From Spongiibacteraceae bacterium (GTDB lineage Bacteria > Pseudomonadota > Gammaproteobacteria > Pseudomonadales > CAMLJR01), in assembly GCA_047602265.1 (NCBI GenBank), contig JASGHU010000001.1, forward strand, positions 3,465,702 to 3,529,701: DNA of 64,000 nt. The letters run 5' to 3'. This document shows, piece by piece, positions 8,311-32,090 of the stretch. The stretch's first letter is position 1, and every line of letters begins with the position of its first letter. Below the pieces are notes generated by a model that had not been told where the DNA came from, made no database searches, and worked only from the letters and a program-made list of their open reading frames with translations. The translations under genes and the position numbers were made by a program.

Positions 8311-9540
8311 TTGAGTTTTCGGCGCGTCGCTCGCCCGAAGCTCTGGTGTCACGTGATGAACAATTGGTTTTTTGTCGGTGCCAAGCTGCACCTGTGGTGT
8401 GGCCGCTACACGTTCTTGCTGGCCGCCGCTATCACAGCGGCAATCGTTAGCTGTATTGCGCTGCAGATGCATCAAATCGCGGCGGCGCTCGGCGCATTTG
8501 CGCTCTACTATCATCTCTCCGTCACCGTGTTGGTCAACCAGCGGCAACAGCTCGCCGAACAGCAATTAAATTCGCTGACCGAAATGCTGCCTAGCTTCAA
8601 CACATTGGCCTACGCGCAACACGGCACGCTGATCGAAAAATTATATTGCGCATTGCGAGAACTCATCCGCGATGCACAACGCGTGCGTAGCGAGACCCAA
8701 TTTTCCGGACTGGCCTTGGAAAAATTAGCCACCGCCGCCGAACATGATTCCTCTGAGCAGCGGCGTCGTTTGGAAATGATTGCTGCAGCCGCGGAGGAAA
8801 TCTCTCAAACGGTGCAACATATTCGCAATCTCGCCGAGCAAGCGAATATCGCTTTCAACACTGTGCAAAAAAATAGCGCCGTCGGTGTGCAGGAAATGCA
8901 GCTGATGCGCAACAGCATGGTCGAAATCAAGGAAACGATGGAAAAAACTCACGAAGCGGTGACTCATTTGCTAACGCGTACAGACGCCATCGATAACTTC
9001 GTGCAAACGATTCAAGGTGTCGCCAAACAAACCCAATTGCTAGCACTCAATGCCTCGATCGAAGCTGCGCGCGCCGGCGAACACGGTCGCGGCTTTGCCG
9101 TGGTTGCCGATGAGGTGCGCTCGCTGGCGATGACGACGCAAACCGCTGCTTCCGATATCACCACGCTGATCGCACAGATCAATACCGCCGTCGAACAGGT
9201 GCGCGACAGCGTGAGCGCGCATCGCGAGTTGCTCGACGACAACAGCGAGCGCACCGATCATCTTGCCGAATCGCTGCAGTCGCTGACCGAACTTAGCCTT
9301 GCCAATCTCGATGGCCTGGCCACGCTGCAACATGCATTGAATGAACATTCGCTGGCGAGTCAATCGCTCAGCGAACAATTGCAGGAAGTGAATGGCATTG
9401 TGATTCAACAAAACGATCAGACCAGCCGCCTGCGTTCGCTCACCGTCTATCTGACGCAATTGACCGGCACGAATGTGCAAGACGCAAAGCTACAACAACC
9501 GAATCGACAATTGATGTCGAAACTGGAGGTAGCCGTATGA
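8311..9540 (+). CDS. Methyl-accepting chemotaxis protein lacking a recognisable ligand-binding domain
   Basis: Carries the conserved signalling hairpin [34 protein letters not shown]. The N-terminus has only two closely spaced TM helices. Start is TTG 8311 or ATG 8356. Confidence 0.85.
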
Positions 9541-10298
9541 TGGCTCCACTCGCACTATTCAGCATCGCGCTGCTGCTGTGTATCGCTTTCAGCCTGTACA
9601 GCTATCACCGCGCATGTCGTCATGTCGCCGCGGGTGATAATGCCAGTACGCAATTAATTGACGGCACGCTGGCGTTGATCCAGCTACTGCAAAAACACCG
9701 CGGCTTAGGCGCGCAACAAAGCGGTGTTGCCGTCACGCAGCGCACACAGATTGCGCGAGAAATCGATTATCGCTGGCGCGACTGGGCCATCCACCTTGGC
9801 GATCTGGAATACCTGCAAACACAATGGATGCGGCTAAAAAATACGCCGAGCGATTTCGAAGGGCACTCGCACATCATCAAAGATTTACTGGGGTTTATCG
9901 AAATTCTTGCGCTGCGGGTGAACGGCCCTGCACTCGATCAACGCCTTGCATTTGCAGAGCGTTGTCGCGCACTGGAAGATCTGGCCAAGCTCCGCGGCCT
10001 CTCGGCGCGCGCCGCCAATTACCCGCAATGCCCAATCGAACTTAAAGTCATGCTGAAATATCTATGCACGAATCTGCACAGCTCCGGCTTGCAGAACAGT
10101 AGCAACGCCCTGCGCGCTGCGCTCAATGAAATCAATCAGAACATGCTCGACGCAAATCGCACAACGATCAGCGCCGCGCGCTGTTTCGAAATACTCACGC
10201 CAATCATCGACGAAGCGCTCGATGAATTGCGTCAATCGATCAACACCCTTAATCAATCAAGCAACCATCAGCAGATGAATCTGGCATACGTTGTTTGA
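9537..10298 (+). CDS. Membrane-anchored NIT-like (nitrate/nitrite-sensing type) domain protein
   Basis: 253 aa. Its start overlaps the MCP stop (ATGA). It has one N-terminal TM helix followed by [17 protein letters not shown], which resembles the NIT-domain LQKERG signature. The domain call is by eye only. Confidence 0.5.
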
Positions 10299-10300
10299 AA

Positions 10301-10345
10301 ATTAAAGGTTAGACAATTAAAGGTTTGATAATTAACAGCTCGATA
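10301..10345. repeat. Three degenerate 15-bp tandem units related to the 5496 array
   Basis: ATTAAAGGTTAGACA / ATTAAAGGTTTGATA / ATTAACAGCTCGATA. The first unit matches the reverse complement of the 5496 unit (ATTAGGGGTTAGAAG) at 11 of 15 positions. Confidence 0.6.
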
Positions 10346-10356
10346 ACCTGGGGAAG

Positions 10357-10389
10357 AACGCTGATTCGTAAAATCAGCGTTTATTTTTT
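10357..10389 (+). terminator. Rho-independent terminator of the MCP-NIT pair, overlapping the nikR stop
   Basis: AACGCTGATT-cgtaa-AATCAGCGTT followed by TATTTTTT. Confidence 0.75.
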
Positions 10390-10829
10390 GGAGCGTGCAG
10401 CGGTGGAATCACCGCAGCCATCAACTGCAACCTGCCAGTGATCACGCCGCGCATAGTGATCATCTCGTCGGCGATTTGTTGCAGGCGCAGCACGGGGCCC
10501 TGCACCAGAATCACCTCCATGGTTTGATGATGCATGAGGTGCACATGCAGCGAACTGATAACTTCGTCGATATGTTCGTGCTGTAAATCGGCCAACTGCT
10601 TTTGCAACCCGCGCGTCGAATGGTCATACAACAGCGTGATCGTGCCCGCCATCACCTCATCGCCAAACTCGCGCTTATGCTCGACGACATGCTGATTGAT
10701 CATGTCGCCGATCGCCTGCGAGCGACTTTCGAAACCGCGCCTCTCGACCATTTCATCGAGATCGATCAACAATTCTTCCGGTAACGAAATGCTAATGCGG
10801 CTGACGAGATTTTTTAATTCTTTAGCCAT
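10374..10829 (-). CDS. nikR: Nickel-responsive regulator NikR
   Basis: 151 aa. Ribbon-helix-helix N-terminus (RISISLPEELLIDLDEMVERRGFESRSQAIGDMI) and an ACT-like C-terminal domain with His-rich metal-site residues (HEHIDEVISSLHVHLMHH). Confidence 0.85.
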   Translation of the reverse strand: MAKELKNLVSRISISLPEELLIDLDEMVERRGFESRSQAIGDMINQHVVEHKREFGDEVMAGTITLLYDHSTRGLQKQLADLQHEHIDEVISSLHVHLMHHQTMEVILVQGPVLRLQQIADEMITMRGVITGRLQLMAAVIPPLHAPKNKR

Positions 10830-11166
10830 TGGCTTCTTGGACTCCGTGCCTTGGAGCAGTGAACTGTTATTTTTCGCTTACCAAGTAGCATTTGTTCGTT
10901 TGAACTACTCGGCTCACCAAAGGGGCGAAGGCCGGTGCTTTCCAATGAACCGTTGGCGAAAAATAACAGTCCACGACTCCTTCAAAAACTGCTGCAAACA
11001 TCAATAAAAACCGTATCGATGCATCAAGCGAGGTGGTCGAATATTTTTCGGCCGGACTCCTTGCGAAGCCGAGACAACCCTTGTGTTTGCGGGTTGAATT
11101 TAAAACACCATAGCAACCATTGCTTGCAAGCCGCAAAAATAATCGACTACCTCGCCCACCACAAAA

Positions 11167-12528
11167 CTAAAACATATAGCTATAACGATCGGTCTCCCAT
11201 TGACTCACGCTCAAGTGATATTCCTCCCACTCCAACGTTTTGTATTTGATGAATTCATCGCGCAATTCTTTGCCGAGTACTTTTTCCACGAGTGGATCAG
11301 CAGCGAACGCAGCCACCGCTTCCTGCAAGGTTTGCGGCAGAAATTCGATCCCGCGATCGCGACGTTCGGCATCGCTGATTTCGTACAAGTTATCTTCGTT
11401 CGGCGAACCTGGATCGATACCCTCGCGAATACCTTCCAATCCGGCGGCCAACGCGAGCGTCGCCGCCAAATAGGGATTCACCGCACCATCGGCATTACGT
11501 GATTCACAGCGACCGCCGCCGGCCGGAACGCGTACGGAATTCGTGCGGTTGTTCGAACCGTACGAATTGAATACCGGCGCCCACGAGAAATAGCTCATCG
11601 CACCGCGACGCACCAAGCGCTTGTAGCTATTCACCGTCGGCGCAAACACCGCACACAACGCGCGACCATGTTTGAGAATACCGCCGATAAATTGATAACC
11701 CAGCGGCGTCAAACCGATGCCACGAGGATCATCCTTCGGATCGCAGGCAAATAAATTTTTGCCCGTATCGATGTCGAACAGCGACATATTGAAATGCGCG
11801 CCATTGCCGGTTTTATCGGCAAATGGTTTCGGCATCATCGTCGCGATCAAGCCTTCCTCTTTCGCGTAATGCTTTGCCATGAAGCGGAAGAAGGTGAGGC
11901 GATCGCATGTGGTCAATGCATCGGCATATTGAAAATCGAATTCGTATTGCCCATTGGCATCTTCATGGTCGAAGGAATATAAATCCCAACCAAGATCGTT
12001 GATCGTCGTCGCGACTTTATCGAGCCAGCTGAAACTATCGACAAAACCGCGCACGTCATAACACGGCTTAGTCAATTTGTCGTCGGGATTTGGCACCGCC
12101 AACGTGCCATCTTCATTTTTCTTGAGCAAAAATATTTCGCACTCAATGCCAAGATTAAAGCCGTAGCCGAGTGCCTTCGCTTCGTTCATGACATTTTGCA
12201 AAGCCACGCGCGTATTCAGCGCATACGGTTTTCCCTGAAAATAATTATCCGCGGGAATCCACGCAATTTTCGGCTCCCACGGTAATTGAATCGCGCGATC
12301 GAGATCGGGTACCGAAGTGATTTCGTCATCGTTCGGCGCCTGCCCCAAACCATCGAGCGCGTAACCGGTGTAACGTTCCGAGCCATGCGCCATATGTTCG
12401 AGATGTGCAATCGGCACGACCTTCGCCTTTGGCACGCCATGAATATCGACATAGGCGCCGATGCAATATTTCACGCCTTTTTCTTGCAACTGCTTTTGAA
12501 TGGTTTGAATTTCTGCTGCTGATTTCAT
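11167..12528 (-). CDS. Glutamine-synthetase-family ATP-dependent ligase (type III / gamma-glutamyl-amine synthetase-like)
   Basis: GS catalytic-domain blocks are present: [24 protein letters not shown] and [10 protein letters not shown] prefer the ATG at 12528 (SD GAGG 7 nt upstream) over the GTG at 12552. Confidence 0.85.
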
Positions 12529-12655
12529 CGTATACCTCGTCTTCTCAGTCACTCCGTCATCATGCGGCGACCGTGTTTAACACTCTCGACCGTGGTCCGT
12601 TCGGTCATTCGAAATACGAACGTATCGTCACTTTAAAAGTGCTACTTTAAAATCG

Positions 12656-13411
12656 TCACTTAAAATGGGAGTGATCCAGCGGTGGATTTTCACTAACACC
12701 ACGCATGATGAGATCGCTCAAATCCTCAACCATCCACGCAAACCATTCGCGACCTTTATCGGCATTGGCTCGACTTGGAAATCCCGTTACGCCGTTGGTG
12801 CTCGTACGATTCACCGGATGCGCAAACACTAAATTATCGGTGCGATCGGGATCGTCGGCTTCGGTCAGCAATTCGGTGCGCACCATCTGTGGTGCGCGCG
12901 CCAGCATCAATGACGTTTCAGCATCGTTCGCGTGCCAGTCATCACCATCGGCAAAGTGAAACTCACGTACACGTTTTGAGATCGTCGCTGAGTTAAAAAT
13001 TGCCACCATCATGTCGTCGTGCTCGGAACGCAGCATTTCGAGCGCACAACGCAACGGCGCCGCGTTGGTGACATGCGTATTGACGATAAATAAACGGCGC
13101 ACGCCGCTGCGATATGCCCAATCGCCGATTTGTTTAATCAATTCAATCAGCGTGATCGGTTGAATCGCTATCGTGCCGGGCCAGCGTTCGCTGTGCCCGA
13201 GTGAACAGCCATACGGCATCGTCGGCAACATCGGCACTTGTGTTTGTTGCGAAACAGCGCGACACAATTCATCGGCGAGTACGAAATCCATGCCGCACCC
13301 CATGTGCGGGCCATGCTGTTCAGTCGCACCGATCGGTAAAATCGCAGAGTTATTGACTGCGCTTAATTGCGCGGGCAATTCAGCCCAGGTCGATTCAGCC
13401 CACAGCATCAT
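12656..13411 (-). CDS. Creatininase-family metal-dependent amidohydrolase
   Basis: 251 aa. Carries LPIGATEQHGPHM, the FIVNTH block and a DAETS acidic ligand region, as in creatinine amidohydrolase / ArfB / MftE-type enzymes. It starts 15 nt after the ABC ATPase stop. Confidence 0.85.
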   Translation of the reverse strand: MMLWAESTWAELPAQLSAVNNSAILPIGATEQHGPHMGCGMDFVLADELCRAVSQQTQVPMLPTMPYGCSLGHSERWPGTIAIQPITLIELIKQIGDWAYRSGVRRLFIVNTHVTNAAPLRCALEMLRSEHDDMMVAIFNSATISKRVREFHFADGDDWHANDAETSLMLARAPQMVRTELLTEADDPDRTDNLVFAHPVNRTSTNGVTGFPSRANADKGREWFAWMVEDLSDLIMRGVSENPPLDHSHFK

Positions 13412-13426
13412 TTACTCGCTTCAAGA

Positions 13427-14344
13427 TCATTCAATCTCTTCGACATCATCGCCGACACGCACCATGCGGATCATATTCGGCGATACCTTATCGCTTTCAT
13501 CCTCCTCAACCGCGGGTGGATGAATCAACGCTTCGAGACGTGCTTTGGTGGCGAGAAATTCCGGCGATAAATATTGTTCGGAAAAATTGCGCGGACGCGG
13601 TACGGGAACCTCGATCAACTCCTGCACTTCGCCGGGATGTGCCTTCAACACGAGAATGCGATCGGCGAGAAAAATAGCCTCATCCAGATCGTGCGTGATA
13701 AATAAAATCGTGATATCGATATTTTTCCAGATTTCGAGCAGGTGCGATTGCATCTTGCAGCGCGTCTGCGCATCGAGCGCACCGAACGGCTCATCCATCA
13801 ATAAAATACGCGGCTGATTCGCCAGTGCGCGTGCAATAGCCACACGCTGCTTCATGCCGCCGGATAATTGATGCGGATAGGCATCGGCGAATTTCGATAG
13901 ACCAACCAGATCAAGCCACTGCAGCGCCTCGCTTTCGGCAACGCCACCGCGATTGTTCATTTCGAGGCCAAACATCACGTTCTTTTTGACAGTTAGCCAA
14001 GGAAACAGCGTGTAGCCCTGAAACACCATGCCGCGATCGGAACCGGGCGCTGTCACCGCTTTGCCATCGAGCAATACTTCGCCAGAGGTATACGATTCGA
14101 GCCCGGCGAGAATTCGAATTAATGTCGATTTTCCGCAGCCCGATGGGCCGATTACGCAGACGAATTCGCGACGATGCGTTTTGAAATTAATATCGCGAAG
14201 AGCGGTGACTGCGCCTTGAGCACTGTCATACGTTTTGCCGAGATGCTTGACTTCGAGAATCACTTCGCGCTGTTTCAATTTGTCAAAACGCGAACGTACC
14301 GCATCCGATTGTTCGAGATAGCTTGGCAGATTCGTTTCACTCAT
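13427..14344 (-). CDS. ABC transporter ATP-binding protein (NitT/TauT family)
   Basis: Walker [10 protein letters not shown], signature [15 protein letters not shown], Walker [13 protein letters not shown]. Confidence 0.9.
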
Positions 14345-14389
14345 CGCATCAAATCCTGGACAAATTCGCTGGGGCAGACCGTGTTTGCG

Positions 14390-15418
14390 TTACGCTTTAT
14401 TCGGCGAGCGTTCCCACGGGAATAACCATTTCGCCATCCACGACAGCAGCAAATCAGTGACAAGACCGATAATGCCAATAATGATGATGGCGGCATAAAC
14501 ATTCTCGAAATTCTTGTAACGTGCCTGCTGCGTGATAAACCAGGTAATGCCTGAGCTGGTGCCGATCAATTCCGCCACGATTAAATAGGTCCAAGCCCAA
14601 CCCAGCAAAATGCGCTGATCGCGATACAGATCGGGGAGAATCCCAGGAATTACCACGCGAAACAGCAGCTGCATTTTTTTGGCGCCGAGCGTAAGCGCAG
14701 CTTCCAGCAACGAGATATCGAGTTTGCGTGTGGTGTTGGCAATGACCAGCACTTGCTGAAAGAAGGTGCCGATAAAAATGATCGCGATTTTCGGGCCGTC
14801 ATAAATACCGAGAATCGCTACCGCCAACGCACCGAAGGCAGGTGCCGGCAAATAGCGAAAGAATTCGATGAAGGGTTCACTCAAGCGTGAAAATACGGTG
14901 AATGTTCCGCACAAGATGCCGAGTGGCACACCGATGATCGACGATGCAACGAAACCCCAGAAGATAATTTGAATGCTGTGCCACAAACTTTCATGAAGCC
15001 ATTGGCCATCTTTGCGTTCTGGCGCAGTGGTAAATCCGGTATACAGCGCTTTGGCGACCAAATGCGGCGCCGGCAAATAGATTGGATTCGCTGGCGTTCC
15101 CTGCGGTAACTTCTGCCCCGCAGCCTGAGCGGTGGCAGACTCATCGGCGAATACCGATTTTTCAACCAACATGTCGGGAGCAAAATAACTCACATCTCCC
15201 GGCTCGGTGATACGCATCATCGGATGCCATATGAATGGCACGTAACTGACGATGCTCCAGATGAATAACGGCAGTAAAAACGAACCGATCGTGAGTAACA
15301 ATCGCTCGCGCGGCGACAATTCCTTGCGCACCGCGAACCACGATGTTTTTTGAACTGCGGATTTCTTTTGCATCACCGCACCCGTCACGTCTTTCTCGAT
15401 CTGCTCTACTGCCGTCAT
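14390..15418 (-). CDS. ABC transporter permease (NitT/TauT family)
   Basis: 342 aa and polytopic. It has an EAA-like loop (LEAALTLGAKKMQLLFRVVIPGILP). Confidence 0.9.
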   Translation of the reverse strand: MTAVEQIEKDVTGAVMQKKSAVQKTSWFAVRKELSPRERLLLTIGSFLLPLFIWSIVSYVPFIWHPMMRITEPGDVSYFAPDMLVEKSVFADESATAQAAGQKLPQGTPANPIYLPAPHLVAKALYTGFTTAPERKDGQWLHESLWHSIQIIFWGFVASSIIGVPLGILCGTFTVFSRLSEPFIEFFRYLPAPAFGALAVAILGIYDGPKIAIIFIGTFFQQVLVIANTTRKLDISLLEAALTLGAKKMQLLFRVVIPGILPDLYRDQRILLGWAWTYLIVAELIGTSSGITWFITQQARYKNFENVYAAIIIIGIIGLVTDLLLSWMAKWLFPWERSPNKA

Positions 15419-15430
15419 GTCGCAGGTCTC

Positions 15431-16426
15431 TTAAAGACCGGAAGTGAACGAAGGATCGATATAGCTTTCGATCGGCTGTGCAGTTTTATAAACACTGTAT
15501 TTCACGTTGAAGTCGTCGACGATTTTGGTCGAGCCATAGATCGATTTGAAACCTTCGGCTTTGACATAAGCTGCTTTCGCTTCAGGCAGCGTGAGAATTT
15601 TTGTTCCCTTCAACAGCGCATCGTATTCTGCGGCAGGTACACCGACACGCGCAGCCATGATTTTCACGGCATCGGCGTGCGTTTTCGGATCATGGATGTA
15701 ATCGACAACGCGATACCAAACCTTCACGACTTTTTGCCAATCGGCTTTGCGCGCGGCTACACTTGCTGGATTCACCGCGAGCACGTCGTAAATCAAACCG
15801 GGCTCATCCGCCGAGGTGTAAATCGGTTTCGAACCGGGAACGAGTTTCAGCGCCATACCGGAGTTAGGCTGCCACGCACCGATCGCAGCGACACCACCCG
15901 ATGCCAGAACTTGCGGTGTTTCGTTAGTCGGCGAATTGACGAGCTCAACATCGCTCTCTTTCATGCCGGCTTTTTCGAGACCATTGAGCAGCAGCAGGTG
16001 ATCGACAAATCCAACTTCTACGCCCACTTTTTTGCCTTTCAAATCTTTGAGCGATTTGATGCCGGGCTTGCCGACAATCATGTCGTTGCCGTTCGAATAG
16101 TCGTTGATAAGAATCATCACGCTCTTCGCGCCGTTGGCACCGGTGACAAGTGCATCGCCATTGGTAACCGTTACCGCATCGAGTTTTCCTGCAGCGTAGG
16201 CATCCATCGAAGCGACATAATCGAACCACTCGAATTGCACATCGACACCGGCCTCTTTAAACCAGCCTTTCTCGATGGCGACTTGCCAAGCCACCCATCC
16301 CGGCCAATCCGAGTAGCCCACTTTCAATGGTGGCGCCGCGAATGCCGGCAACGCTGCGCTACATAGCAGAGACAAAGCAACACGCTTGAGCCAGCGTGCA
16401 CACACGTTTTTCGTACGTTGTTTCAT
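15431..16426 (-). CDS. ABC transporter periplasmic substrate-binding protein (NitT/TauT family; the type usually found next to urea/guanidine carboxylase genes)
   Basis: Signal peptide ends ...[21 protein letters not shown] prefer the ATG at 16426 (SD GGGAGA); the track ORF extends to the TTG at 16441. Confidence 0.85.
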
Positions 16427-16514
16427 TGCGGGTTCTCCCAAAGGTCACGTTCACTGCTTGTTTTCAACAACTGGTTTCGAGTATTACGATTTGATCTTGC
16501 CGTAATACCGTGTG

Positions 16515-16530
16515 AGCAACCCCCATGCCA
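16515..16530 (-). promoter_or_regulatory. Sigma-54 -24/-12 promoter for the ABC transporter operon
   Basis: The minus strand reads TGGCATGGGGGTTGCT (GG-N10-GC, TTGCT -12 block), about 90 nt upstream of the ATG at 16426. Confidence 0.6.
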
Positions 16531-16615
16531 GCGATAAAAAATCCCGAAACATCAACAGCCCAACTGTTTTCTCACGCGACTACAGATGGAAAAGCAACGT
16601 GATTGCGCTCCAAAA

Positions 16616-16652
16616 CAATGCAAGACGCTTTGTTTTGGAGCGGAAAAAAAGG
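16616..16652. promoter_or_regulatory. 13-bp-arm inverted repeat, a candidate enhancer-binding-protein site (UAS)
   Basis: CGCTCCAAAACAA-11 nt-TTGTTTTGGAGCG, located 90-135 bp upstream of the sigma-54 -24 element. Confidence 0.35.
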
Positions 16653-16734
16653 TTTGCCAGAAAAAAAAACTTGGGTTAGCCTGAAAAAAGACAGCGATAA
16701 CTGCAGTGTTTTATCGCCTGTTTGGAGTAAGCAA

Positions 16735-16882
16735 TGGACGACTAGGGTTCCGGTTTTCTAAGCAGCCACATCGATTGAGGTGCAGCGAAAACGGCAGGTC
16801 CGAGAGTTGTCGACCTCATCGAACCGATCTTGCCAATTTGTTCGCGAGGTTACACGGCGGGATAAAAGCCCGGGAGATTTTG
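16735..16882 (+). promoter_or_regulatory. Guanidine-I riboswitch (ykkC-yxkD motif)
   Basis: The invariant blocks appear in the right order: ACTAGGGTTCCGG ... GGTCCGAGAG ... ACACGGCGGGATAAAAGCCCGGGAGA. It sits about 125 nt upstream of the first DUF1989 gene. Confidence 0.85.
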
Positions 16883-17005
16883 ATAACGCACGCGCTCGTT
16901 TGACGACACGTAAACGAAGTTGTGTTATCCGAATTAACGCATCGCTGACGATGCACGTGTTAACCGAGCCATGTATTCGTATCGAAAGACGAATCGAATT
17001 GGGAG

Positions 17006-17818
17006 ATGGGTATGCCTCACAACGAATCCTTAAACAAATCTTTATTCGCATCGACGAAACCTCTCTATCGCGACGAAATCGAAGGCGGTAAGCACTGGTC
17101 TTTCGTAATCAAGCGCGATCACGTCCTACGCATTATCGACAAAGACGGCGGTGCCAATGTCGGCATGCTGTTTTACAACCCGCTCAATCCGCTCGAACGC
17201 TACAACGCACCCGATACGCTGAAATGTCAGCACACGTTCAAGCTCACCAAAGGGCATTGCCTGTATTCGGATATGGGCCGCATTTTTTGTTCTATCGTCG
17301 ACGACACTTGCGGCTGGCATGACACCGTCGCCGGCACCAGCAATAAAGCGCTCGTAAAAAATCGCTGGGGCGAACACAACTATCAACAATTTCGCAACGA
17401 CTGGTACTTAAATGGGTATGACAGCTTTCTCGTCGAACTCGCCAAATACGGTTTGGGAAGAAAAGATTTAGCGGCCAACGTCAATTGGTTCAGTAAGGTC
17501 GCGGTCGACGACGCGGGCAATTTTCAGTATGACGAAAGCCACAGCAAAGCCGGCAATTATGTCGACCTGCGTTTTGAGATGGATACGCTGGTGATTTTCA
17601 ACACCTGCCCACATCCGCTCAATAAATCCAGCGAATATCCACGCAAATCGATCATCTACGAATTTTACGAAGCAGCGCCGCGCGCCGCCGACGATTTCTG
17701 CGAGCACTCGTGCTGCGAGAACGAACGCGGATTTAAAAATAATGCGCTCTACCATCTTCAAGCGACAGGCGCATTTCCTATTTTCAAAAACCAGAATGGC
17801 TTCGGAGGTGCGCAATGA
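17006..17818 (+). CDS. DUF1989 'urea-carboxylase-associated' protein, probable carboxyguanidine deiminase subunit (CgdA/B type)
   Basis: 270 aa and a paralogue of the next gene. It sits between the riboswitch and the carboxylase. The start could be 17012. Confidence 0.8.
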
Positions 17819-18450
17819 TACTCTCAAGCCAACTCGCACCCGAAGCAGCAACGTATCGCAAAGTCATTCCAGCCGGCGATTACTGGATGCACGTGATCAA
17901 GAAAGGTCAGGTATTGCGCATTCTCGATCTCGAAGGCAATCAGGCGGCGGACACACTGTTTTATTCGGCTGCTGATCCCGGCGAACGCTACTCTGCTGTC
18001 GACACCATTCGCGAACAAGGCAATGTGTATTTAACCGCGGGCACGAAATTATTATCGAACGAAGGCAATGTGCTGCTCGAAATCGTCGCCGATACCTGCG
18101 GCAGACACGACACCCTCGGCGGCGCGTGCGCAACCGAATCGAATACCGTGCGTTACGCACTCGAAAAGAAATGCATGCATGCGTGTCGCGATAGCTGGAT
18201 GCTCGCCGTTGCCGAAAACGAAAAATTCGGCATGACCAAGCGCGACATTACCCACAACATCAATTTCTTCATGAACGTGCCGGTAACACCCGAAGGCGGT
18301 TTGACGTTCGCCGACGGTATTTCCGAAGCCGGAAAATACGTTGAATTAAAAGCCGAGATGGATGTGATCGCGCTGCTGTCGAATTGCCCGCAGCTGAACA
18401 ATCCATGCAATGCATACAACCCAACACCGATTGAAGTGTTGATTTGGTGA
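17815..18450 (+). CDS. DUF1989 'urea-carboxylase-associated' protein, second probable carboxyguanidine deiminase subunit
   Basis: 211 aa. ATGA start/stop overlap with the previous gene. The two share the motif pattern ([20 protein letters not shown] versus [20 protein letters not shown]). Confidence 0.8.
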
Positions 18451-18460: not shown

Positions 18461-21400
18461 ATGTTTAACGCTGTATTAATCGCCAATCGCGGCGCCATTG
18501 CCTGCCGCATTATTCGTACGCTGAAAGCGATGAATATCCGCGCCATCGCCGTGTATTCGGAAGCCGATGCCGACTCGCGCCATGTCGCGCTCGCCGATGC
18601 CGCTTTCAGTTTGGGTGTTGGCAATGCCGCGCAAACCTATCTCGATCAGGACAAGTTATTTGCGATCGCGAAGCAAAGCGGCGCGCAGGCAATTCATCCG
18701 GGTTATGGATTTCTGAGTGAGAACGCAGGCTTCGCACGCCGCTGTGCCGCAGAAAATATTGTATTCCTCGGCCCCACGCCCGAGCAGATGGAGGCCTTCG
18801 GCCTCAAGCACACCGCGCGACAACTCGCGGTCGACAGCAAATTACCGCTGCTGCCAGGCAGCGGCTTACTCGACACGTTAGACGAAGCGATTACAACAGC
18901 TGAACGCATCGGCTATCCACTCATGTTGAAATCCACCGCGGGCGGCGGCGGTATCGGCATGCAGCTGTGCTTTAGCGAAGACGATTTGCGCGCAGCGTAC
19001 GATTCGGTGCGCAGACTTTCTGCCAATAATTTTTCGAACAGCGGTGTGTTCCTCGAAAAATACGTCGGCAATGCACGCCATATCGAAGTACAAATTTTCG
19101 GCGATGGCAAAGGCGGCGCGCTCGCGCTCGGCGAACGTGACTGCTCGACACAGCGCCGCAATCAGAAAGTTATCGAAGAAACGCCAGCGCCGAATTTACC
19201 CGAGAGCGTGCGCACGCAATTGCGCGATGTTTCGATTCGTCTCGCCAGCGCCGTGCAATACCGCAGCGCGGGCACCATCGAATTTATTTACGATCCACAG
19301 GCCGAGCAAGTTTACTTTCTCGAAGTCAATACGCGACTGCAGGTCGAACACGGCGTCACCGAACAGATTTACGGCGTCGATCTCGTGCGCTGGATGATCG
19401 AAGTTGGCGCAGGCGAATTGCCGCCGCTCGATCAACTCGCCAAAAATCTAACCCCGCGCGGCCATTCGATTCAGGTGCGCTTGTACGCGGAAGATCCCGG
19501 CAAGAATTTTCAGCCGAGTGCAGGATTACTCAGCTCAGTAGATTTCCCGGAAGCTGACGGCAAGCAATTGCGAATTGATCACTGGCTCGAAGCGGGCATC
19601 GAGGTCTCGCCCTTCTTCGACCCGATGCTCGCGAAAATTATTGTGTGGCGCGACACGCGCGAAGCGGCGATTGACGCTCTCGATCACGCACTGTCGCAAA
19701 GCACGGTTTACGGAGTCGAAACCAATCGCGATTATTGCCGCGCGATTTTGCGCAGCGACATTTTTACACGCGGTGAAATCCACACGCGCTATCTCAATCA
19801 ATTCGAATTTCTGGCTCCGCGCATCGATGTGCTGCGCGCGGGCACGATGACGACGATTCAGGATTTTCCCGCTCGCGGCGGCTACTGGGATGTCGGCGTG
19901 CCGCCGTCGGGACCGTTCGACGATTGGTCGTTCCGGCTTGGCAATCGCCTGCTCGGCAACGATGAGAAATGCGCGGGCCTCGAAATCACACTCAACGGCC
20001 CGACACTGCAATTTCGAACCGCAACACAAATTGTGTTGGCTGGTGCACCACTCGCAGCAAAACTCAACGACGCGCCGGTCGATTATTGGCAAGTGATCGA
20101 TATTGCTGCGGGCGATGTGTTGTCGATTGGCAGTAACACCGCATCGGGAGCGCGCGCGTATTTGCTCGTGCGCGGCGGCATTGAATGTCCGGATTATCTC
20201 GGCGCAAAATCCACATTCACGCTCGGCCAGTTCGGCGGTCATAACGGCCGTGCATTGCGTGCGGGCGATGTGATTGCGATTTCGCCGCTCGAAGCGAAAG
20301 TTGACGCAAAGCTATTAGCGAGCGATTTAATTCCCGCGCTCAATTCGACGTGGGATATTCACGTTATTTACGGCCCGCATGGCGCACCCGATTTTTTCAC
20401 GCCGAGCGACATTGAGAAATTCTTCGAAGCCGAATGGGAAGTGCATTACAACTCCTCGCGCACGGGCGTGCGTCTGATCGGCCCGAAACCCGAATGGGCG
20501 CGCAGCGATGGCGGCGAAGCAGGCATGCATCCGTCGAATATTCACGATAACGCCTACGCACTGGGCAGCATCGATTTCACCGGCGATATGCCCGTGATTC
20601 TCGGGCCCGATGGCCCTTCGCTCGGCGGTTTCGTGTGCCCCGCTACGGTCATTCGCGCCGAGCGTTGGAAAATTGGCCAGCTCAAAGCCGGAGATCGTGT
20701 GCGTTTTGTTCCGGTCACGCTTGCGACTGCCGAAAAAATCGAACGCGCACAACTCGCTGCGCTGGAAAACTTAAGCGCACAAAATATCGCTGTCGAATCC
20801 TGCACAAGTCTGCCGAATCCAATCATCGATTCCATCGCGGCAACCGATGCGAGTGTCGCGGTGAATTATCGCTGCGCCGGCGATAAATTTCTGCTCGTCG
20901 AATACGGTCCGATGATGCTCGATATCGATCTGCGTTTTCGCGTGCACGCACTCATGCTCGAATTACAACGCAGTAAACCCGCCGGTATTTTCGAGATGAC
21001 GCCGGGTATTCGCTCGCTGCAAATTCATTACGACAATCTGCGCATCAGCACCGCGCAATTGATTGCGTGGCTGAAAGATACCGAAGCCAAACTCGGTGCG
21101 AGCGACGATCTCGAAGTACCTGCGCGTGTCGTTTATTTGCCGCTGTCGTGGGATGACGAAGCCTGTCGCCTCGCGATCGAGAAATACATGCAGTCGGTGC
21201 GCAAAGACGCGCCGTGGTGCCCGAGCAATATCGAATTCATTCGCCGCATCAACGGCCTCGATAGCATCGACGACGTGAAAAAAACCGTGTTCGATGCGAG
21301 TTATGTGGTGATGGGCCTCGGCGATGTGTATCTCGGTGCGCCCGTAGCCACGCCGCTCGATCCGCGCCATCGCCTCGTCACCACCAAATACAATCCTGCA

Positions 21401-22075
21401 CGCACGTGGACGGCGGAAAACTCAGTCGGCATCGGCGGCTCATATATGTGCGTGTACGGCATGGAAGGTCCTGGCGGCTATCAATTTGTCGGCCGCACGC
21501 TGCAGATGTGGAACCGCTATCGCACCACGAAAGAATTTTCCAAACCATGGCTGCTGCGCTTCTTCGATCAGATTCGCTTTGTCGAAGTCAGTGCCGAAGA
21601 ACTTGTAAAAATTCGGCGCGATTTTCCCAATGGACGTTATTCGCTGCGCATCGAAGAAACCACCTTCAACTTGCAGCAGTACCGCCAATTTCTGCGCGAC
21701 AACGCGGACGACATCGCCGCCTTCACGAAAACACGCGATGAGGCCTTCGCGGAGGAGCTGCAGCGCTGGCGCGATAACGGCCAATTCACCTTCGACAATA
21801 CCCCGCTCGATGTCGATACGAGTGGGGATACCGAGCAGCTTCCACCGGGTGGCATTGCGGTGGAAAGTCAGGTCGCGGGCAGCATTTGGAAGATTCTGGT
21901 CAAGCCCGGTGAAAAAATTAAATCGGGCCAGATTATTGCTGTGCTCGAATCGATGAAAATGGAGATCGACGTACACGCCAGCGTCGACGGCGTTGTACAC
22001 AACATTGCCCGCGGGGAAGGCAGCCAGATCGGCGCTGGCCAAACTCTGATGGTGATTCGCGAGGAGAAAATTTAA
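18461..22075 (+). CDS. Biotin-dependent urea/guanidine carboxylase (context favours guanidine carboxylase)
   Basis: 1204 aa. N-terminal biotin carboxylase (MFNAVLIANRGAIACRIIRT...), central carboxyltransferase/KipA-KipI-like regions, and a C-terminal biotinyl domain with the AVLESMKME motif. Confidence 0.9.
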   Translation: MFNAVLIANRGAIACRIIRTLKAMNIRAIAVYSEADADSRHVALADAAFSLGVGNAAQTYLDQDKLFAIAKQSGAQAIHPGYGFLSENAGFARRCAAENIVFLGPTPEQMEAFGLKHTARQLAVDSKLPLLPGSGLLDTLDEAITTAERIGYPLMLKSTAGGGGIGMQLCFSEDDLRAAYDSVRRLSANNFSNSGVFLEKYVGNARHIEVQIFGDGKGGALALGERDCSTQRRNQKVIEETPAPNLPESVRTQLRDVSIRLASAVQYRSAGTIEFIYDPQAEQVYFLEVNTRLQVEHGVTEQIYGVDLVRWMIEVGAGELPPLDQLAKNLTPRGHSIQVRLYAEDPGKNFQPSAGLLSSVDFPEADGKQLRIDHWLEAGIEVSPFFDPMLAKIIVWRDTREAAIDALDHALSQSTVYGVETNRDYCRAILRSDIFTRGEIHTRYLNQFEFLAPRIDVLRAGTMTTIQDFPARGGYWDVGVPPSGPFDDWSFRLGNRLLGNDEKCAGLEITLNGPTLQFRTATQIVLAGAPLAAKLNDAPVDYWQVIDIAAGDVLSIGSNTASGARAYLLVRGGIECPDYLGAKSTFTLGQFGGHNGRALRAGDVIAISPLEAKVDAKLLASDLIPALNSTWDIHVIYGPHGAPDFFTPSDIEKFFEAEWEVHYNSSRTGVRLIGPKPEWARSDGGEAGMHPSNIHDNAYALGSIDFTGDMPVILGPDGPSLGGFVCPATVIRAERWKIGQLKAGDRVRFVPVTLATAEKIERAQLAALENLSAQNIAVESCTSLPNPIIDSIAATDASVAVNYRCAGDKFLLVEYGPMMLDIDLRFRVHALMLELQRSKPAGIFEMTPGIRSLQIHYDNLRISTAQLIAWLKDTEAKLGASDDLEVPARVVYLPLSWDDEACRLAIEKYMQSVRKDAPWCPSNIEFIRRINGLDSIDDVKKTVFDASYVVMGLGDVYLGAPVATPLDPRHRLVTTKYNPARTWTAENSVGIGGSYMCVYGMEGPGGYQFVGRTLQMWNRYRTTKEFSKPWLLRFFDQIRFVEVSAEELVKIRRDFPNGRYSLRIEETTFNLQQYRQFLRDNADDIAAFTKTRDEAFAEELQRWRDNGQFTFDNTPLDVDTSGDTEQLPPGGIAVESQVAGSIWKILVKPGEKIKSGQIIAVLESMKMEIDVHASVDGVVHNIARGEGSQIGAGQTLMVIREEKI

Positions 22076-23928
22076 TGCTGGCTTTTGAACAAATCGATCT
22101 CACTATTTCCGGCCTGCGCGCGCATTACCAACGCGGCGATTTCACACCGCGCGAATTGATCGCCCTGCTGCGCGAGCGCAGCAAGCAATTCGTCGATCGC
22201 AATATCTGGATTCATGAGTTGAGCGACGCCGAGATCGACATTTACTTGAGTGCTCTCGATAAGCGCTCACCCACCGATGCACCGCTGTACGGTGTTCCCT
22301 TCGCCATTAAAGATAATATTGACCTCGCCAACATCGAAACAACCGCTGCGTGCAAAGCCGTCGCATTCACGCCGAGCGAAGATGCATTCGTCGTCAATAA
22401 TTTAATTGCTGCCGGCGCGATTCCACTCGGCAAAACCAATCTCGATCAACTTGCGACGGGCATCAATGGCACGCGCTCACCGTGGGGCCCCGGCAAAAAC
22501 AGTTTCGATCCAAAATATATTTCGGGCGGTTCGAGTTCGGGTTCGGCGATTGCGGTTGCACTCGGCATCGCCACATTTTCGCTCGGCACCGACACCGCAG
22601 GCTCCGGCCGCATTCCCGCCGCGTTCAACAATATCGTCGGCTGGAAACCCACACGCGGCATTTTAAGCAGCCGCGGTATGCTGCCCGCATGCCGCACACT
22701 CGACTGCATCACGCTGTTCACCTCCACCGCCGCCGATACCGCTGCATTGCTGCCCTTCGTCGCGCGTTACGATGAGAAGGATGCCTACGCACGCGTCAAT
22801 CCTGCGCACAATACATCGAACAGCGGCATGGCGAATCCGTTCGGTGCACCTGCCAAAAAATCGTTTAAATTCGGTGTACCGCGCGCCGATCAGCTTGAAT
22901 TTTATGGCAACGAAAACTATGCAGCAGCGTTTGCGAAAAGTATTGCATTGCTCGAAAGCATCGGCGGTATCAAACGCGAGATCGATTTCCGTGATTTTCT
23001 CGATGCCGCGCGCCTGCTGTACGAAGGCCCATGGATTGCCGAGCGTTATCACGGCATTCGCGAACTGATCGATAGTAATCCTTCTGCGTTATTGCCCGTG
23101 ATTCAAACCATCATCGGTCAGGGCCGCGATAAATCCGGCGTCGATACGTTCGATGCGATGTACAAAATGCAGGAATTCCGCCGCAAGATCGAACCTCTCA
23201 TCAACTCGCTGGAATTCATTGCAACACCAACCGCGGGCACGCATTTCACGATTGAAGAAATGCTGGCCGAACCGATTCTGCATAATTCGCAGCTCGGCTA
23301 TTACACCAACTTTATGAATCTGCTCGATCTTGCCGCTGTCGCTGTGCCCACGCAGATACTCGACAACGGCATGCCCTTCGGCATTACCTTATTTTCCGAT
23401 CGCTTCACCGATCTGCGTTTGCTCAGTTACGCACAAAAAATTCAAGCGACGACGAAACTGCCGCTTGGCGCCACGAAAAAAGCGGTTGAATTCCCCGCGC
23501 TGCCCGCACGCACCGAATTATCGACGTGCAAGGTTGTCGTCTGCGGCGCACACATGAGCGGCCTGCCATTCAACAATCAATTACTCGCGCGTCAAGCGAA
23601 ATTAATTTCAAAAACCAAAACGTCGTCGAGCTATCGCTTCTACGCGCTTCCAGGCGGCGCGGTACAACGTCCGGGTTTGATTCGTGTCGGCTCTCTCAAT
23701 GACGCTAGTGCTGGGGGCGGCGCAGCGATTGAAGTCGAAGTTTGGGAAATGCCGAGTGTCGAATTCGGCTCCTTCGTCGCCGCGATTCCGCAACCGCTCG
23801 GTATCGGCAAAGTGGAATTGGAAAGTGGTGAATGGGTACCGGGATTTATTTGCGAAGGTTATGCAGTAAACGGCGCGGAAGATATTACGGCGCTCGGCGG
23901 GTGGCGGAATTTTATCGGGCGCAAATAA
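22075..23928 (+). CDS. Allophanate hydrolase
   Basis: 617 aa. Amidase-signature domain (GGSSSGSAIAVALG, GTDTAGSGRIPAAFNN) plus the extra C-terminal domain typical of allophanate hydrolases. TAATG overlap with the carboxylase. Confidence 0.9.
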   Translation: MLAFEQIDLTISGLRAHYQRGDFTPRELIALLRERSKQFVDRNIWIHELSDAEIDIYLSALDKRSPTDAPLYGVPFAIKDNIDLANIETTAACKAVAFTPSEDAFVVNNLIAAGAIPLGKTNLDQLATGINGTRSPWGPGKNSFDPKYISGGSSSGSAIAVALGIATFSLGTDTAGSGRIPAAFNNIVGWKPTRGILSSRGMLPACRTLDCITLFTSTAADTAALLPFVARYDEKDAYARVNPAHNTSNSGMANPFGAPAKKSFKFGVPRADQLEFYGNENYAAAFAKSIALLESIGGIKREIDFRDFLDAARLLYEGPWIAERYHGIRELIDSNPSALLPVIQTIIGQGRDKSGVDTFDAMYKMQEFRRKIEPLINSLEFIATPTAGTHFTIEEMLAEPILHNSQLGYYTNFMNLLDLAAVAVPTQILDNGMPFGITLFSDRFTDLRLLSYAQKIQATTKLPLGATKKAVEFPALPARTELSTCKVVVCGAHMSGLPFNNQLLARQAKLISKTKTSSSYRFYALPGGAVQRPGLIRVGSLNDASAGGGAAIEVEVWEMPSVEFGSFVAAIPQPLGIGKVELESGEWVPGFICEGYAVNGAEDITALGGWRNFIGRK

Positions 23929-26274: not shown

Positions 26275-26634
26275 TTAGATCTTCCGCAACTGCTCATACG
26301 CAAAATCTAAATACATCTCCAGCCGCCTGTTTACCTCGGCAGACAGGCTAATGTATTTAACACGACGATCCTCCACTGCGTACTTCTCAATTAGCAATTC
26401 ACGGTCAATCAGATCCTGCACGTACTTAACAGCAGTACGCCGGCTGATCCCGGGCATAAAATCGTAGAGGCTGGTTTTGGTGAGCGGCTCGCCAGCATGC
26501 AGCCACATCTGAAAAAAAAGATCGGAGTAATTCAGATCGTTTAGGCCCAGCTCTGCAAATGTATCGGTCCAGTAATCGTCGGCTCTTAACATGGCGCTCG
26601 CGACCGCGACCCGTCTTTTATTGCTGATCGCCAT
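26275..26634 (-). CDS. Small winged-helix (MarR-like) transcriptional regulator
   Basis: 119 aa. wHTH-like segment LTKTSLYDFMPGISRRTAVKYVQDLIDRELLIE...RRVKYISLS. Confidence 0.55.
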   Translation of the reverse strand: MAISNKRRVAVASAMLRADDYWTDTFAELGLNDLNYSDLFFQMWLHAGEPLTKTSLYDFMPGISRRTAVKYVQDLIDRELLIEKYAVEDRRVKYISLSAEVNRRLEMYLDFAYEQLRKI

Positions 26635-26701
26635 AACTCCTCCTTACCTTGCCCCTATCTCAACTCCGCCTTCCGGCGAAATAAATAAATCGGGCCGGAT
26701 T

Positions 26702-26725
26702 TATACATGCAATTTTGCATGTATA
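26702..26725. promoter_or_regulatory. Perfect 10-4-10 palindrome, a candidate operator in the divergent promoter region
   Basis: TATACATGCA-attt-TGCATGTATA, between the small wHTH gene and the TIM-barrel/desaturase pair. Confidence 0.5.
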
Positions 26726-26758
26726 GTAACACCCATCAATGAGGTGGAGGAATCCATC

Positions 26759-29388: not shown

Positions 29389-29703
29389 TTCGTGGCACGT
29401 TAAATCAGTCGGCCAACACTGTCAAAGTGCGCTCATTTTTAGCGCGCTCGCCTACTAATGAAGCATATCAGGCATTACTGAAAAGACTCATTTTCGCCTT
29501 CGCAGTCCGCATCATCGCGCTAACTCCACGGCATATCGGCATTTTTCCGCGAGCCTCAACAGCTCATGCCGATTGGCGTGACGCTTGCTATCGAAAGATT
29601 GTGCGTTGTATACATCGTCGTGCACATAGACATTTCGACAGCGATTGCGGGTTCCGAAATGCCGGTATTGTGAGTGTCGTTATTTCGCCATGGATGGCGA
29701 CTT

Positions 29704-29745: not shown

Positions 29746-29793
29746 CGCTGATTGCTGCAGCGCGTGACTGGACTCACCCGGATCGAGATCTCC

Positions 29794-32089: not shown

Positions 32090-32090
32090 A

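Follow-up and report, generated by a model that had tools for sequence, protein, structure and literature searches.

The operon described here encodes an importer, a creatininase-family hydrolase and a glutamine synthetase (GS)-like ligase, and it is divergent from a guanidine-riboswitch operon, which raises the question of what compound the importer brings in and what the two enzymes do with it. In the window (the whole 64-kb stretch of DNA that was analysed), the original prediction of a substrate-binding protein (SBP)-permease-ATPase trio, followed after 15 nt by the hydrolase (CRE) and after a further 127 nt by a 453-aa GS-family ligase, was borne out in every part (Table 1), and Pfam and NCBIfam agreed with the gene families proposed. 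The start of the ligase could be fixed because its close orthologues are all 453 aa long. The divergent operon was also found as predicted, with a guanidine-I aptamer above the 63-bit cutoff of its Rfam family and a CgdA-CgdB-carboxylase-allophanate hydrolase block for which TIGR03425, TIGR03424, TIGR02712 and TIGR02713 were all above cutoff. A NikR-like gene and its operator had not been part of the prediction, and two BiuH/GuuH-like hydrolases are also encoded in the window. The SBP, permease, ATPase, CRE, GS-like ligase and NikR-like regulator constitute one conserved guanidine-regulon cassette of six genes.

Table 1. Positions of the cassette, its control elements and the divergent operon in the window.
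Feature	Position	Strand	Remarks
NikR-like RHH regulator gene	10374..10829	minus	PF01402 + PF08753
Hairpin 3' of NikR-like gene	10356..10382	none	terminator-like; common to convergent gene
GS-family ligase gene, GmaS / 'type III' clade	11167..12528	minus	453 aa; TIGR03105
CRE-GS spacer	12529..12655	minus	127 nt; holds 14-nt direct repeat
CRE gene, creatininase-fold metallo-amidohydrolase	12656..13411	minus	PF02633, 229 bits; contains LPIGATEQHGPHM
ABC ATPase gene	13427..14344	minus	PF00005
ABC permease gene	14390..15418	minus	PF00528; position kept across loci
SBP gene	15431-16441; 15431..16426 from probable ATG at 16426	minus	Pfam NMT1/NMT1_2; NitT/TauT family, GimA-like
Predicted operator of NikR-like repressor	16481..16508	none	perfect inverted repeat
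Guanidine-I riboswitch of divergent guanidine carboxylase operon	16731..16878	plus	Rfam RF00442, 82 bits
CgdA	17006-17818	plus	NCBIfam above cutoff
CgdB	17815-18450	plus	NCBIfam above cutoff
Guanidine/urea carboxylase	18461-22075	plus	NCBIfam above cutoff
Allophanate hydrolase	22075-23928	plus	NCBIfam above cutoff

The gene order of the cassette was kept in all 80 related loci compared, which came from alpha-, beta- and gammaproteobacteria and included 39 with full flanks; only in locus L016 was CRE present and the GS gene absent. Identities across these loci were 72-80% for CRE and 69-86% for GS. CRE lay directly downstream of the ATPase gene in 79 of the 80 loci, and the neighbourhood comparison proposed with the original prediction revealed a close association of CRE with GS (adjacent in 77 of 78 evaluable loci, among them L030, where GS is fragmented); both linkages far exceed chance. 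The median gaps were operon-like (8 nt for ATPase-CRE, 32 nt for CRE-GS and 21 nt for GS-NikR-like), and in two gene-called relatives, L081 and L082, the ATPase and CRE genes abut or overlap. Neighbours mapped for the cassette in the loci were the genes for the ABC ATPase, the ligase, the NikR-like protein and CgdAB; downstream of the ligase came the NikR-like gene, which occupied this position in at least 45 loci, or CgdA. Moreover, guanidine carboxylase genes (GC/CgdAB) occurred within 10 kb in 30 of the 39 full loci, with CgdAB-GC downstream on the same strand in 21, and nine full loci (e.g. L010, L012 and L014) held stand-alone cassettes with unrelated flanks. A conserved operon of guanidine-type ABC importer, creatininase-fold hydrolase and GS-like ligase, as originally proposed, is upheld by the order kept in these 80 loci. 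Many cassette hosts are methylotrophs.

One part of the prediction, that a direct repeat in the CRE-GS spacer may give the ligase its own control, was not supported. The 14-nt repeat, ATCGTCACTT(T/A)AAA, does exist, at 12624-12637 and 12652-12665 (28 nt from start to start), the second copy overlapping the CRE stop codon. It was kept only in L081, a near-identical relative, and was absent from L082, in which the ligase is 93% identical and the spacer 43 nt long. No terminator was found within the spacer, and the short median CRE-GS gap likewise speaks against separate control. As judged by this comparison, the repeat is lineage-specific and bears no sign of function.

In orthologous loci, the whole gene string lies behind a guanidine-I riboswitch, and elsewhere, including the window, behind an operator. 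Rfam and our own model placed the riboswitch ahead of the SBP gene in 20 loci, at a distance of no more than 1.1 kb: 35-101 nt in 15 of them, and about 0.9-1.0 kb in the other five, where one small gene intervenes. Riboswitches of this class respond to free guanidine and reject substituted analogues (PMC7266159). No second guanidine-I aptamer was detected in the window at E<=1, and the sole aptamer faces the divergent operon. The operator, GTATTACG-N12-CGTAATAC, which can also be read as GTATTA-N16-TAATAC or GTATTAC-N14-GTAATAC, lies 55-82 nt before the ATG of the SBP gene and is unique in the 64-kb window, with 0.04 occurrences expected by chance. When 1.26 Mb of loci were scanned for these half-sites at variable spacing, 39 of 43 boxes lay at the start of a cassette. 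The NikR-like gene and the operator stood in place of the riboswitch in 34 of 55 evaluable loci, and in loci lacking the regulator the riboswitch took the operator's place.

The NikR-like protein comprises RHH (PF01402) and NikR_C (PF08753) domains and reached 134.8 bits with NF003381 (cutoff 105). It shares this architecture, Arg3 and His87/His89 with NikR of E. coli, P. horikoshii and H. pylori. The predicted operator matches the nik operator of E. coli (GTATGA-N16-TCATAC) in its length of 28 bp and in the 16 bp between hexamers. However, the canonical high-affinity nickel site (His76', His87, His89 and Cys95) was not intact in the 48 NikR-like members: Cys95 was Thr in the window protein and T, M or L in all 48, and His76 was kept in only two, one of which is the window protein. 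The NikR-like protein also differs in its target, a guanidine operon, and in that a guanidine-I riboswitch can stand in for it. We propose that this protein would repress the cassette promoter through GTATTAC-N14-GTAATAC, and that it would answer to a signal different from nickel bound at the classical site.

Across 66 orthologues, the SBP residues W41, W44, D115, W185 and D214 are either invariant or aromatic, and they have candidate counterparts in the cage of GimA (W59, W62, D135, F205 and D233), which likewise consists of aromatic residues and two Asp; compared by residue position, the spacing is 3, 71, 70 and 29 against 3, 73, 70 and 28 in GimA (Sll1080). On this resemblance, the SBP probably binds guanidinium. 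The importer matches those of GimABC-type carboxylase operons (Pseudomonas syringae, Raoultella terrigena; Synechocystis GimABC) in being a NitT/TauT trio under guanidine-I control, with a riboswitch upstream in the 20 loci, and in adjoining CgdAB, guanidine carboxylase and allophanate hydrolase. It differs in three respects: two additional enzymes, CRE and the GS-like ligase, always separate the importer from the remaining genes; the SBP belongs to a separate subfamily, scoring 159 bits with TIGR03427 (urea-carboxylase-associated SBP; cutoff 333.9); and a NikR-like repressor often takes the place of the riboswitch.

CRE shares its fold with creatininase (EC 3.5.2.10, PDB 1j2t), and the binuclear-metal ligands E34, H36, D45 and H120 as well as H178 and E183 were all invariant. 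In contrast, it matched creatininase at E 1e-19 only, and the creatinine-site residues were altered in 81 of 81 sequences (Y121V, E122T, W154 deleted and W174G/A). Its scores fell below the family cutoffs of creatininase (TIGR04448, 116 against 235 bits), MftE (TIGR03964, 116.6 against 172 bits) and IolN. To judge from these residues, CRE is a creatininase-fold hydrolase with an intact metal centre but without the creatinine pocket.

The ligase, which NCBI names 'type III glutamate--ammonia ligase', scored 661.3 bits with TIGR03105 (cutoff 469.6), the family of that name. Its closest solved structures were GmaS 9qur (4e-114) and then 7cql (2.5e-100), and its identity to the two validated GmaS was 42-43%, compared with 45% between those two. 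When positions were mapped through RhGmaS, the Asp50' and catalytic flap Glu of ammonium-using GS were replaced by Thr and Trp, respectively, in all 69 ligase members, as in GmaS. The proposed inspection of pocket residues thus revealed a lost ammonium site and an amine-type, GmaS-like enzyme, and the placement of the ligase outside core GS was supported. Invariant residues of the clade were D177, E179, E186, R312, R317, K30', Y147, G231, H235, R288, E325 and R327, which include the catalytic D177, E186 and R312 of GmaS together with K30' and Y147, and the ligase retains every GmaS residue for ATP, Mg and glutamate. The amine pocket, however, departs from Gln175/Asn188 of GmaS: Q175S and N188D occurred in 69 of 69 members, with H237N and an aromatic flap (SGATW to (S/N)YFSW, YF for GA), and T48', S175, D188, N237, Y297 (67/69) and F298 were invariant or nearly so, unlike in GmaS. 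Because Gln175 and Asn188 also contact ATP phosphates in RhGmaS, Q175S and N188D need not concern the amine. Guanidinium is recognised in GimA and GdmH by carboxylate and aromatic residues (PMC12704784), and an extra Asp is said to set guanidine carboxylase apart from urea carboxylase (PMC11410670); the gain of one carboxylate and aromatics in the ligase pocket fits the GimA/GdmH pattern and has a parallel in the extra Asp of guanidine carboxylase. Furthermore, mgs/mgd genes are lacking nearby and the setting is a guanidine regulon, unlike that of GmaS in the N-methylglutamate pathway, genes of which adjoined the cassette in no locus. On this residue pattern, the ligase is a member of the GmaS clade with an altered amine pocket and not an ammonium-type GS.

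We tentatively favour, from these sequence features, a route in which guanidine is imported, joined to glutamate at the expense of ATP and then hydrolysed as an activated acyl-guanidine. The GimABC-type importer would bring in guanidinium, and the ligase would spend ATP on coupling guanidine to the gamma-carboxyl group of glutamate, yielding gamma-glutamylguanidine, a compound for which no record was found in the literature searched. The inert guanidinium would become an activated acyl-guanidine by the chemical logic of carboxylation by guanidine carboxylase. CRE would then cut within the guanidino part to release either ammonia and gamma-glutamylurea or glutamine and urea, and these products would enter glutamine/glutamate metabolism and the adjacent carboxylase/allophanate hydrolase or urease. 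Creatininase itself cleaves the acyl C-N bond of a cyclic acyl-guanidine; a changed point of attack must be assumed for CRE, because cleavage of the creatininase type would undo the ligation in a futile cycle. Some observations sit uneasily with this route: L016, with CRE and no GS, counts against a ligase-then-CRE scheme; the short ATPase-CRE gaps may be a sign that the imported molecule meets CRE before the ligase, and an order of hydrolase before ligase is possible; and, next to the complete carboxylase pathway of the 30 full loci, a second route would be in part superfluous.

Operons pairing a GS-like ligase with a hydrolase include PuuA/PuuD, IpuC/IpuF and that of the aniline ligase AtdA1, and the cassette resembles these gamma-glutamylation pathways in devoting such a pair to nitrogen-compound catabolism. 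It differs in that its hydrolase has the creatininase fold and is not a class-I amidotransferase-like gamma-glutamyl hydrolase, and in lacking an oxidative step between the two enzymes. The proposed mechanism would share the logic of urea amidolyase and guanidine carboxylase, ATP-dependent activation followed by hydrolysis: one ATP would be spent on acylating a nitrogen compound stabilised by resonance, which a hydrolase could then split. The activating group would be gamma-glutamyl instead of carboxyl, and no biotin would be involved. As originally supposed, no characterised pathway with this transporter and enzyme pair, and no description of a CRE-GS pair with a guanidine importer, was found in the full-text literature searched.

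Several other explanations have to be weighed. The enzyme pair could serve as an accessory to the guanidine carboxylase pathway, in which CRE deacylates N-acyl- or carbamoyl-guanidines such as guanylurea or acetylguanidine to free guanidine with creatininase-type regiochemistry, and the ligase captures methylamine from methylguanidine or another small amine by-product. This doubtful reading draws on the acyl-N bond hydrolysed by creatininase in an acyl-guanidine, the proximity of GC/CgdAB in 30 of 39 full loci (co-directional in 21), the start of CRE a few nt after the ATPase stop, the equal distance of the ligase from both validated GmaS, the methylotrophic hosts and the two BiuH/GuuH-like hydrolases of the window. 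It has to contend with the invariant replacement of Q175 and N188 of the GmaS pocket, the lack of adjoining N-methylglutamate pathway genes and the gamma-glutamyl dead end that would arise in stand-alone cassettes. In addition, induction would need the product, because the riboswitch senses free guanidine and not its substituted analogues (PMC7266159). It is unlikely that the ligase is a low-affinity 'type III' GS trapping the three ammonia released per guanidine, with CRE an unrelated amidase in the same operon. The TIGR03105 equivalog score and the NCBI name fit such an enzyme, and RhGmaS takes ammonium with a high Km (PMC7948447), but none of the 69 members has Asp50', the residue for binding and deprotonating ammonium, or the flap Glu, and the near-obligate CRE-GS pairing and the clade-specific pocket would be left unexplained.

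The scheme of the original prediction, ring-opening by CRE of imported creatinine or a different cyclic amide and gamma-glutamylation of the amine thus set free, is very unlikely. Although CRE belongs to PF02633 with its metal ligands kept and is paired with an amine-type ligase, the missing Y121, E122, W154 and W174 and the score below the TIGR04448 cutoff argue against such a substrate. Its import is opposed by the SBP, with its putative small guanidinium-type cage of GimA spacing, and by regulation through guanidine, since the riboswitch that immediately precedes the SBP gene in orthologous loci senses the free compound. The neighbours among nine mapped window proteins are NikR-like, CgdAB and carboxylase, and the flanks at three fully ORF-listed stand-alone loci are unrelated. 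A nickel-homeostasis cassette, with the regulator a genuine nickel-sensing NikR and the transporter and enzymes under its control serving to acquire nickel or a nickel chelator, is hardly credible. NikR HMM scores above cutoff and the operator geometry of the E. coli nik operon agree with it; against it stand the constant lack of Cys95, the loss of His76 in all but two of 48 members, a transporter of the NitT/TauT and not the NikABCDE type, and the guanidine riboswitch that replaces the operator where the regulator is missing.

In conclusion, the guanidine importer and the two uncharacterised enzymes probably represent an undescribed step or route of bacterial guanidine nitrogen use, because CRE and the ligase always follow the importer under a guanidine-sensing RNA or an altered nickel-type repressor. 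That the cassette combines a third guanidine route, through ligase and CRE, with a NikR-family repressor sensing guanidine or a pathway intermediate is possible, if somewhat questionable. If true, this third route would need neither biotin nor nickel and would deliver nitrogen directly as glutamine or ammonia, and a NikR-family repressor without the nickel site would have taken on the role that the guanidine-I riboswitch plays at this promoter in sister genomes.

The SBP, permease, ATPase, creatininase-fold hydrolase (CRE), GS-family ligase and NikR-like genes of the window constitute a cassette that is a conserved operon within the guanidine regulon. The order from SBP to ligase given in the original prediction was confirmed by the ORF listing and family scans, and the start of the ligase was fixed because all close orthologues have 453 aa. 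The NikR-family gene and a perfect inverted repeat upstream of the SBP gene were absent from that prediction; the repeat occurred once in the 64 kb, with 0.04 occurrences expected by chance. The guanidine-I aptamer of the window was 148 nt long, compared with 103-125 nt in related loci, and the extra ~40 nt sat in two internal insertions. No further riboswitch or RNA motif was detected in window 10200-17100 at E<=1.

Features of the cassette and of the divergent guanidine operon in the window
Feature	Position	Strand or orientation	Basis or remark
SBP, NitT/TauT type	15431-16441, likely ATG 16426	minus	ORF listing and family scans
Permease	14390-15418	minus	ORF listing and family scans
ATPase	13427-14344	minus	ORF listing and family scans
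CRE, PF02633 creatininase family, 15 nt after ATPase	12656-13411	minus	ORF listing and family scans
GS-family ligase, 127 nt after CRE	11167-12528	minus	ORF listing and family scans
NikR-family gene, downstream of ligase	10374-10829	minus	family scans
Perfect inverted repeat GTATTACG-N12-CGTAATAC	16481-16508		55-82 nt upstream of SBP start codon
Guanidine-I riboswitch	16731-16878	divergent from cassette	Rfam, 82 bits
CgdA, CgdB, carboxylase, allophanate hydrolase (downstream of riboswitch)		divergent from cassette	family scans

The cassette was found to be widespread and under strong constraint. With CRE as query and one genome per species, 489 relatives were recovered among 185,579 species genomes, and thousands more proteins were present in metagenomes; the locus counts rest on the best 80 of these 489 relatives. 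The hosts of the 80 loci were Methylophilaceae, Aquabacterium, Sulfuriferula, Gallionellales, Xanthobacteraceae, Parvibaculum, Mangrovitalea and others, and the mean identity of the ligase across classes was 83%. ATPase and CRE genes were adjacent in 79 of 80 loci. The expected adjacency of the CRE and ligase genes was likewise conserved (77 of 78 evaluable loci, with a fragmented ligase gene in one of the 77, L030), and median gaps were 8 nt for ATPase-CRE, 32 nt for CRE-ligase, 21 nt for ligase-NikR-like and 26 nt for NikR-like-CgdA. Moreover, full 10-kb flanks were available for 39 loci; a carboxylase gene lay within 10 kb in 30 of them and was co-directional in 21 of those 30, so that in many genomes a single string runs from SBP to carboxylase. 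Stand-alone six-gene cassettes with unrelated flanks were present in nine of the 39, and no plasmid-borne copy was found at E<=1e-30. The related locus L016 (3913-5320) was the only one in which the NikR-like gene directly followed CRE and the ligase gene was absent.

It had also been suggested that a direct repeat in the CRE-ligase spacer might give the ligase its own control. The repeat is real, but it was common only to the window and one near-identical relative and was missing from L082, a related locus with a 93% identical ligase and a 43-nt spacer, and its conservation was rejected on these grounds. Furthermore, neither a terminator nor a promoter was predicted in the spacer on the minus (coding) strand, and we see no reason to assume that the ligase is controlled separately.

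CRE scored below the family cutoffs for creatininase (116 against 235) and MftE (116.6 against 172), and also below that for IolN. A sequence search with CRE recovered all solved PF02633 structures, and the match to the P. putida creatininase reached only 1e-19. In an alignment of 81 members, E34, H36, D45, H120, H178 and E183 were invariant, while of the creatininase positions Y121 was replaced by Val, E122 by Thr, W174 by Gly/Ala and E177 by Trp, and W154 was deleted. The invariant metal ligands and the lost creatinine residues show that the metal centre is intact and the creatinine pocket gone, and CRE belongs with the metal hydrolases but not with the creatininases. Creatinine, proposed earlier as a possible substrate, was supported neither by the family score nor by the pocket residues.

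The ligase matched the NCBIfam family 'type III glutamate--ammonia ligase' with 661 bits, and NCBI uses the same name. Its closest solved structures were two GmaS, 9qur (4e-114) and 7cql (2.5e-100), to each of which it was 42-43% identical, the two sharing 45% with each other. Residues described for the reference RhGmaS, with roles taken from PMC7948447, were mapped onto 69 cassette ligases. Every ligand of ATP, Mg and glutamate was invariant, and so were the catalytic D177, E186 and R312, which marks the enzyme as an active gamma-glutamyl ligase. Asp50', the ammonium residue of GS, was replaced by Thr and the flap Glu by Trp, as is likewise the case in GmaS; these replacements bear out the view that the ligase is not a GS of the ammonium type. 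In both validated GmaS the amine pocket contains Gln175 and Asn188 and the flap reads SGATW; in the cassette clade Ser175, Asp188 and Asn237 are invariant and the flap reads (S/N)YFSW. Guanidinium is reported to be held by an extra carboxylate and aromatic side chains in GimA, the guanidine-binding SBP of Synechocystis (Sll1080), and in GdmH (PMC12704784), and an extra Asp is the stated signature of guanidine carboxylase as opposed to urea carboxylase (PMC11410670). By analogy, the altered pocket may point to guanidinium recognition, but this is no more than a hint, since in RhGmaS both Gln175 and Asn188 make contact with ATP as well (PMC7948447).

The SBP is a paralogue of the carboxylase-associated SBP family, its TIGR03427 score being 159, below 334. 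GimA binds guanidine with a KD of ~0.1 uM via W59, W62, F205, D135 and D233 (PMC12704784). In the cassette SBP, W41, W44 (W/F/Y), D115, W185 (W/F) and D214 were invariant or aromatic in 66 orthologues, and these cage positions were mostly kept in representatives of 30-60% identity. The spacing equals that of the cage residues in GimA, a positional comparison drawn from published residue numbers, and suggests an importer of guanidine type. Sll1080 was not found among 150 family representatives by published residue numbers or cluster names.

Two kinds of control were observed at the start of the cassette. In L002, a related locus, Rfam placed a guanidine-I aptamer immediately in front of the SBP gene, and a covariance model built from this aptamer and that of the window located aptamers upstream of this gene, at a distance of 35-101 nt in 15 loci and of ~0.9-1.0 kb, with one small gene between, in 5 more. 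A search of 1.26 Mb of loci for the 28-bp box (<=2 mismatches) gave 43 boxes, of which 39 shortly precede the SBP gene. The other four include three that still mark an operon start: two precede the permease gene in loci whose SBP gene has been relocated, and one precedes the riboswitch in L046. The last box, at position 1505 of L047 with 2 mismatches, adjoins none of the mapped genes. Over 55 evaluable loci, the split between protein regulator and riboswitch was almost clean: 34 had the NikR-like gene and the box without a riboswitch, 15 a riboswitch with neither, 2 the NikR-like gene and a riboswitch without a box near the SBP gene, and 4 none of the three. In the window and in loci between L004 and L080, a putative GTATTAC-N14-GTAATAC operator and the gene of the NikR-like protein, its presumed repressor, stand in place of the riboswitch.

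The half-sites of the box were conserved and its spacer variable, which is the signature of a protein operator, and in its hexamer-N16-hexamer geometry the box matches the nik operator of E. coli, GTATGA-N16-TCATAC. Compared with solved NikR sequences, the position of E. coli C95 was Thr in the window and T/M/L in 48/48 orthologues, and His76 was kept in only 2/48, with His87 and His89 kept. The regulator is therefore not a canonical NikR and is probably mislabelled as a nickel sensor; in most lineages a protein with a degenerate nickel site replaces the RNA sensor. In L046 the box and the riboswitch act in series, an arrangement that cautions against assuming the same signal for both sensors.

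Further genes were noted upstream of related cassettes. In L044 (2892-5820), a second guanidine-I riboswitch is followed by a PF00487 desaturase-like membrane protein, an MBL-fold hydrolase and an EamA transporter, and the desaturase-like and MBL genes also occur together upstream of the cassette in L023, L036, L046, L047, L051, L052, L057, L069 and L071. The window has a 38% identical desaturase-like gene at 27653-28663, beside a TIM-barrel (PF01261) gene (26591-27601). A 230-aa protein without Pfam match (L044, 6269-6961) has homologues in 14 other loci and none in the window; it lies directly upstream of the SBP gene in 12/80 loci, and in L036, L044, L046, L052 and L069 a guanidine-I riboswitch precedes it.

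With respect to the reaction, the reading that we tentatively prefer, at somewhat less than even confidence, is that guanidine itself would be gamma-glutamylated by the ligase at the cost of one ATP, and that the resulting acyl-guanidine would be hydrolysed by CRE within its guanidino part. The carboxylase plus CgdAB follow the same 'activate, then hydrolyse' logic. The main weakness of this mechanism is that creatininase cleaves the acyl-N bond, a regiochemistry that would undo the work of the ligase. The main rival, to which we give perhaps one chance in a few, is that CRE releases guanidine from acyl- or carbamoyl-guanidines such as guanylurea by deacylation and the ligase captures a by-product amine. 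This reading fits the strong linkage to the carboxylase and the minimal distance between the ATPase and CRE genes, which abut or overlap in the related loci L081 and L082.

The other readings are less likely than both gamma-glutamylation of guanidine and deacylation by CRE. Plain ammonia capture by a ligase with the GmaS-type Thr and Trp is improbable, and a creatinine pathway is more improbable still. Nickel homeostasis, which the label of the regulator would suggest, is hardly to be expected, nickel uptake being rejected by the lost nickel ligands and the transporter type.

Several features of the neighbouring island were also recorded. Window 28672-32780 contains a GntR-type regulator, two biuret-hydrolase-like genes of the BiuH/GuuH family, of which 31710-32780 scored above and 29752-30474 below the cutoff, and an ORF of 528 aa that matched no family; the island may also process biuret or guanylurea. 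An Rfam '5' ureB sRNA' match of 91 bits (38285-38571, plus strand) falls, in antisense orientation, within an ORF of 567 aa on the minus strand (37020-38723). This ORF presumably encodes the large subunit of urease, and the match is most likely due to the conserved urease coding sequence and not to an sRNA of the Helicobacter type. Genes for methyl-accepting chemotaxis proteins flank the guanidine island on both sides (8311-9540 and 24442-26076), and there may be chemotaxis towards these nitrogen compounds.

To our knowledge, guanidine is degraded by only two described routes, one through carboxylase/CgdAB and the other through the Ni-dependent guanidinase, and many riboswitch-associated genes have no settled function. 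The literature searched, including guanidine reviews and primary papers, contained no mention of the enzyme pair or of a NikR-like regulator in guanidine operons, an earlier passing mention being possible; within it, the view that no characterised pathway matches the pair stood. The component families are known, and their combination and regulation do not match any described system.

Both enzymes lie inside the guanidine regulon yet have no assigned reaction. If the function of the cassette were worked out, an enzyme pair, and perhaps a whole pathway, would be placed in the freshwater and soil nitrogen cycle that turns over guanidine, guanylurea and residues of metformin. Two names applied systematically in databases, 'type III glutamate--ammonia ligase' and 'nickel-responsive regulator NikR', would also be put right, and the cassette would serve as a natural case of a promoter at which RNA sensor and protein regulator have changed places.
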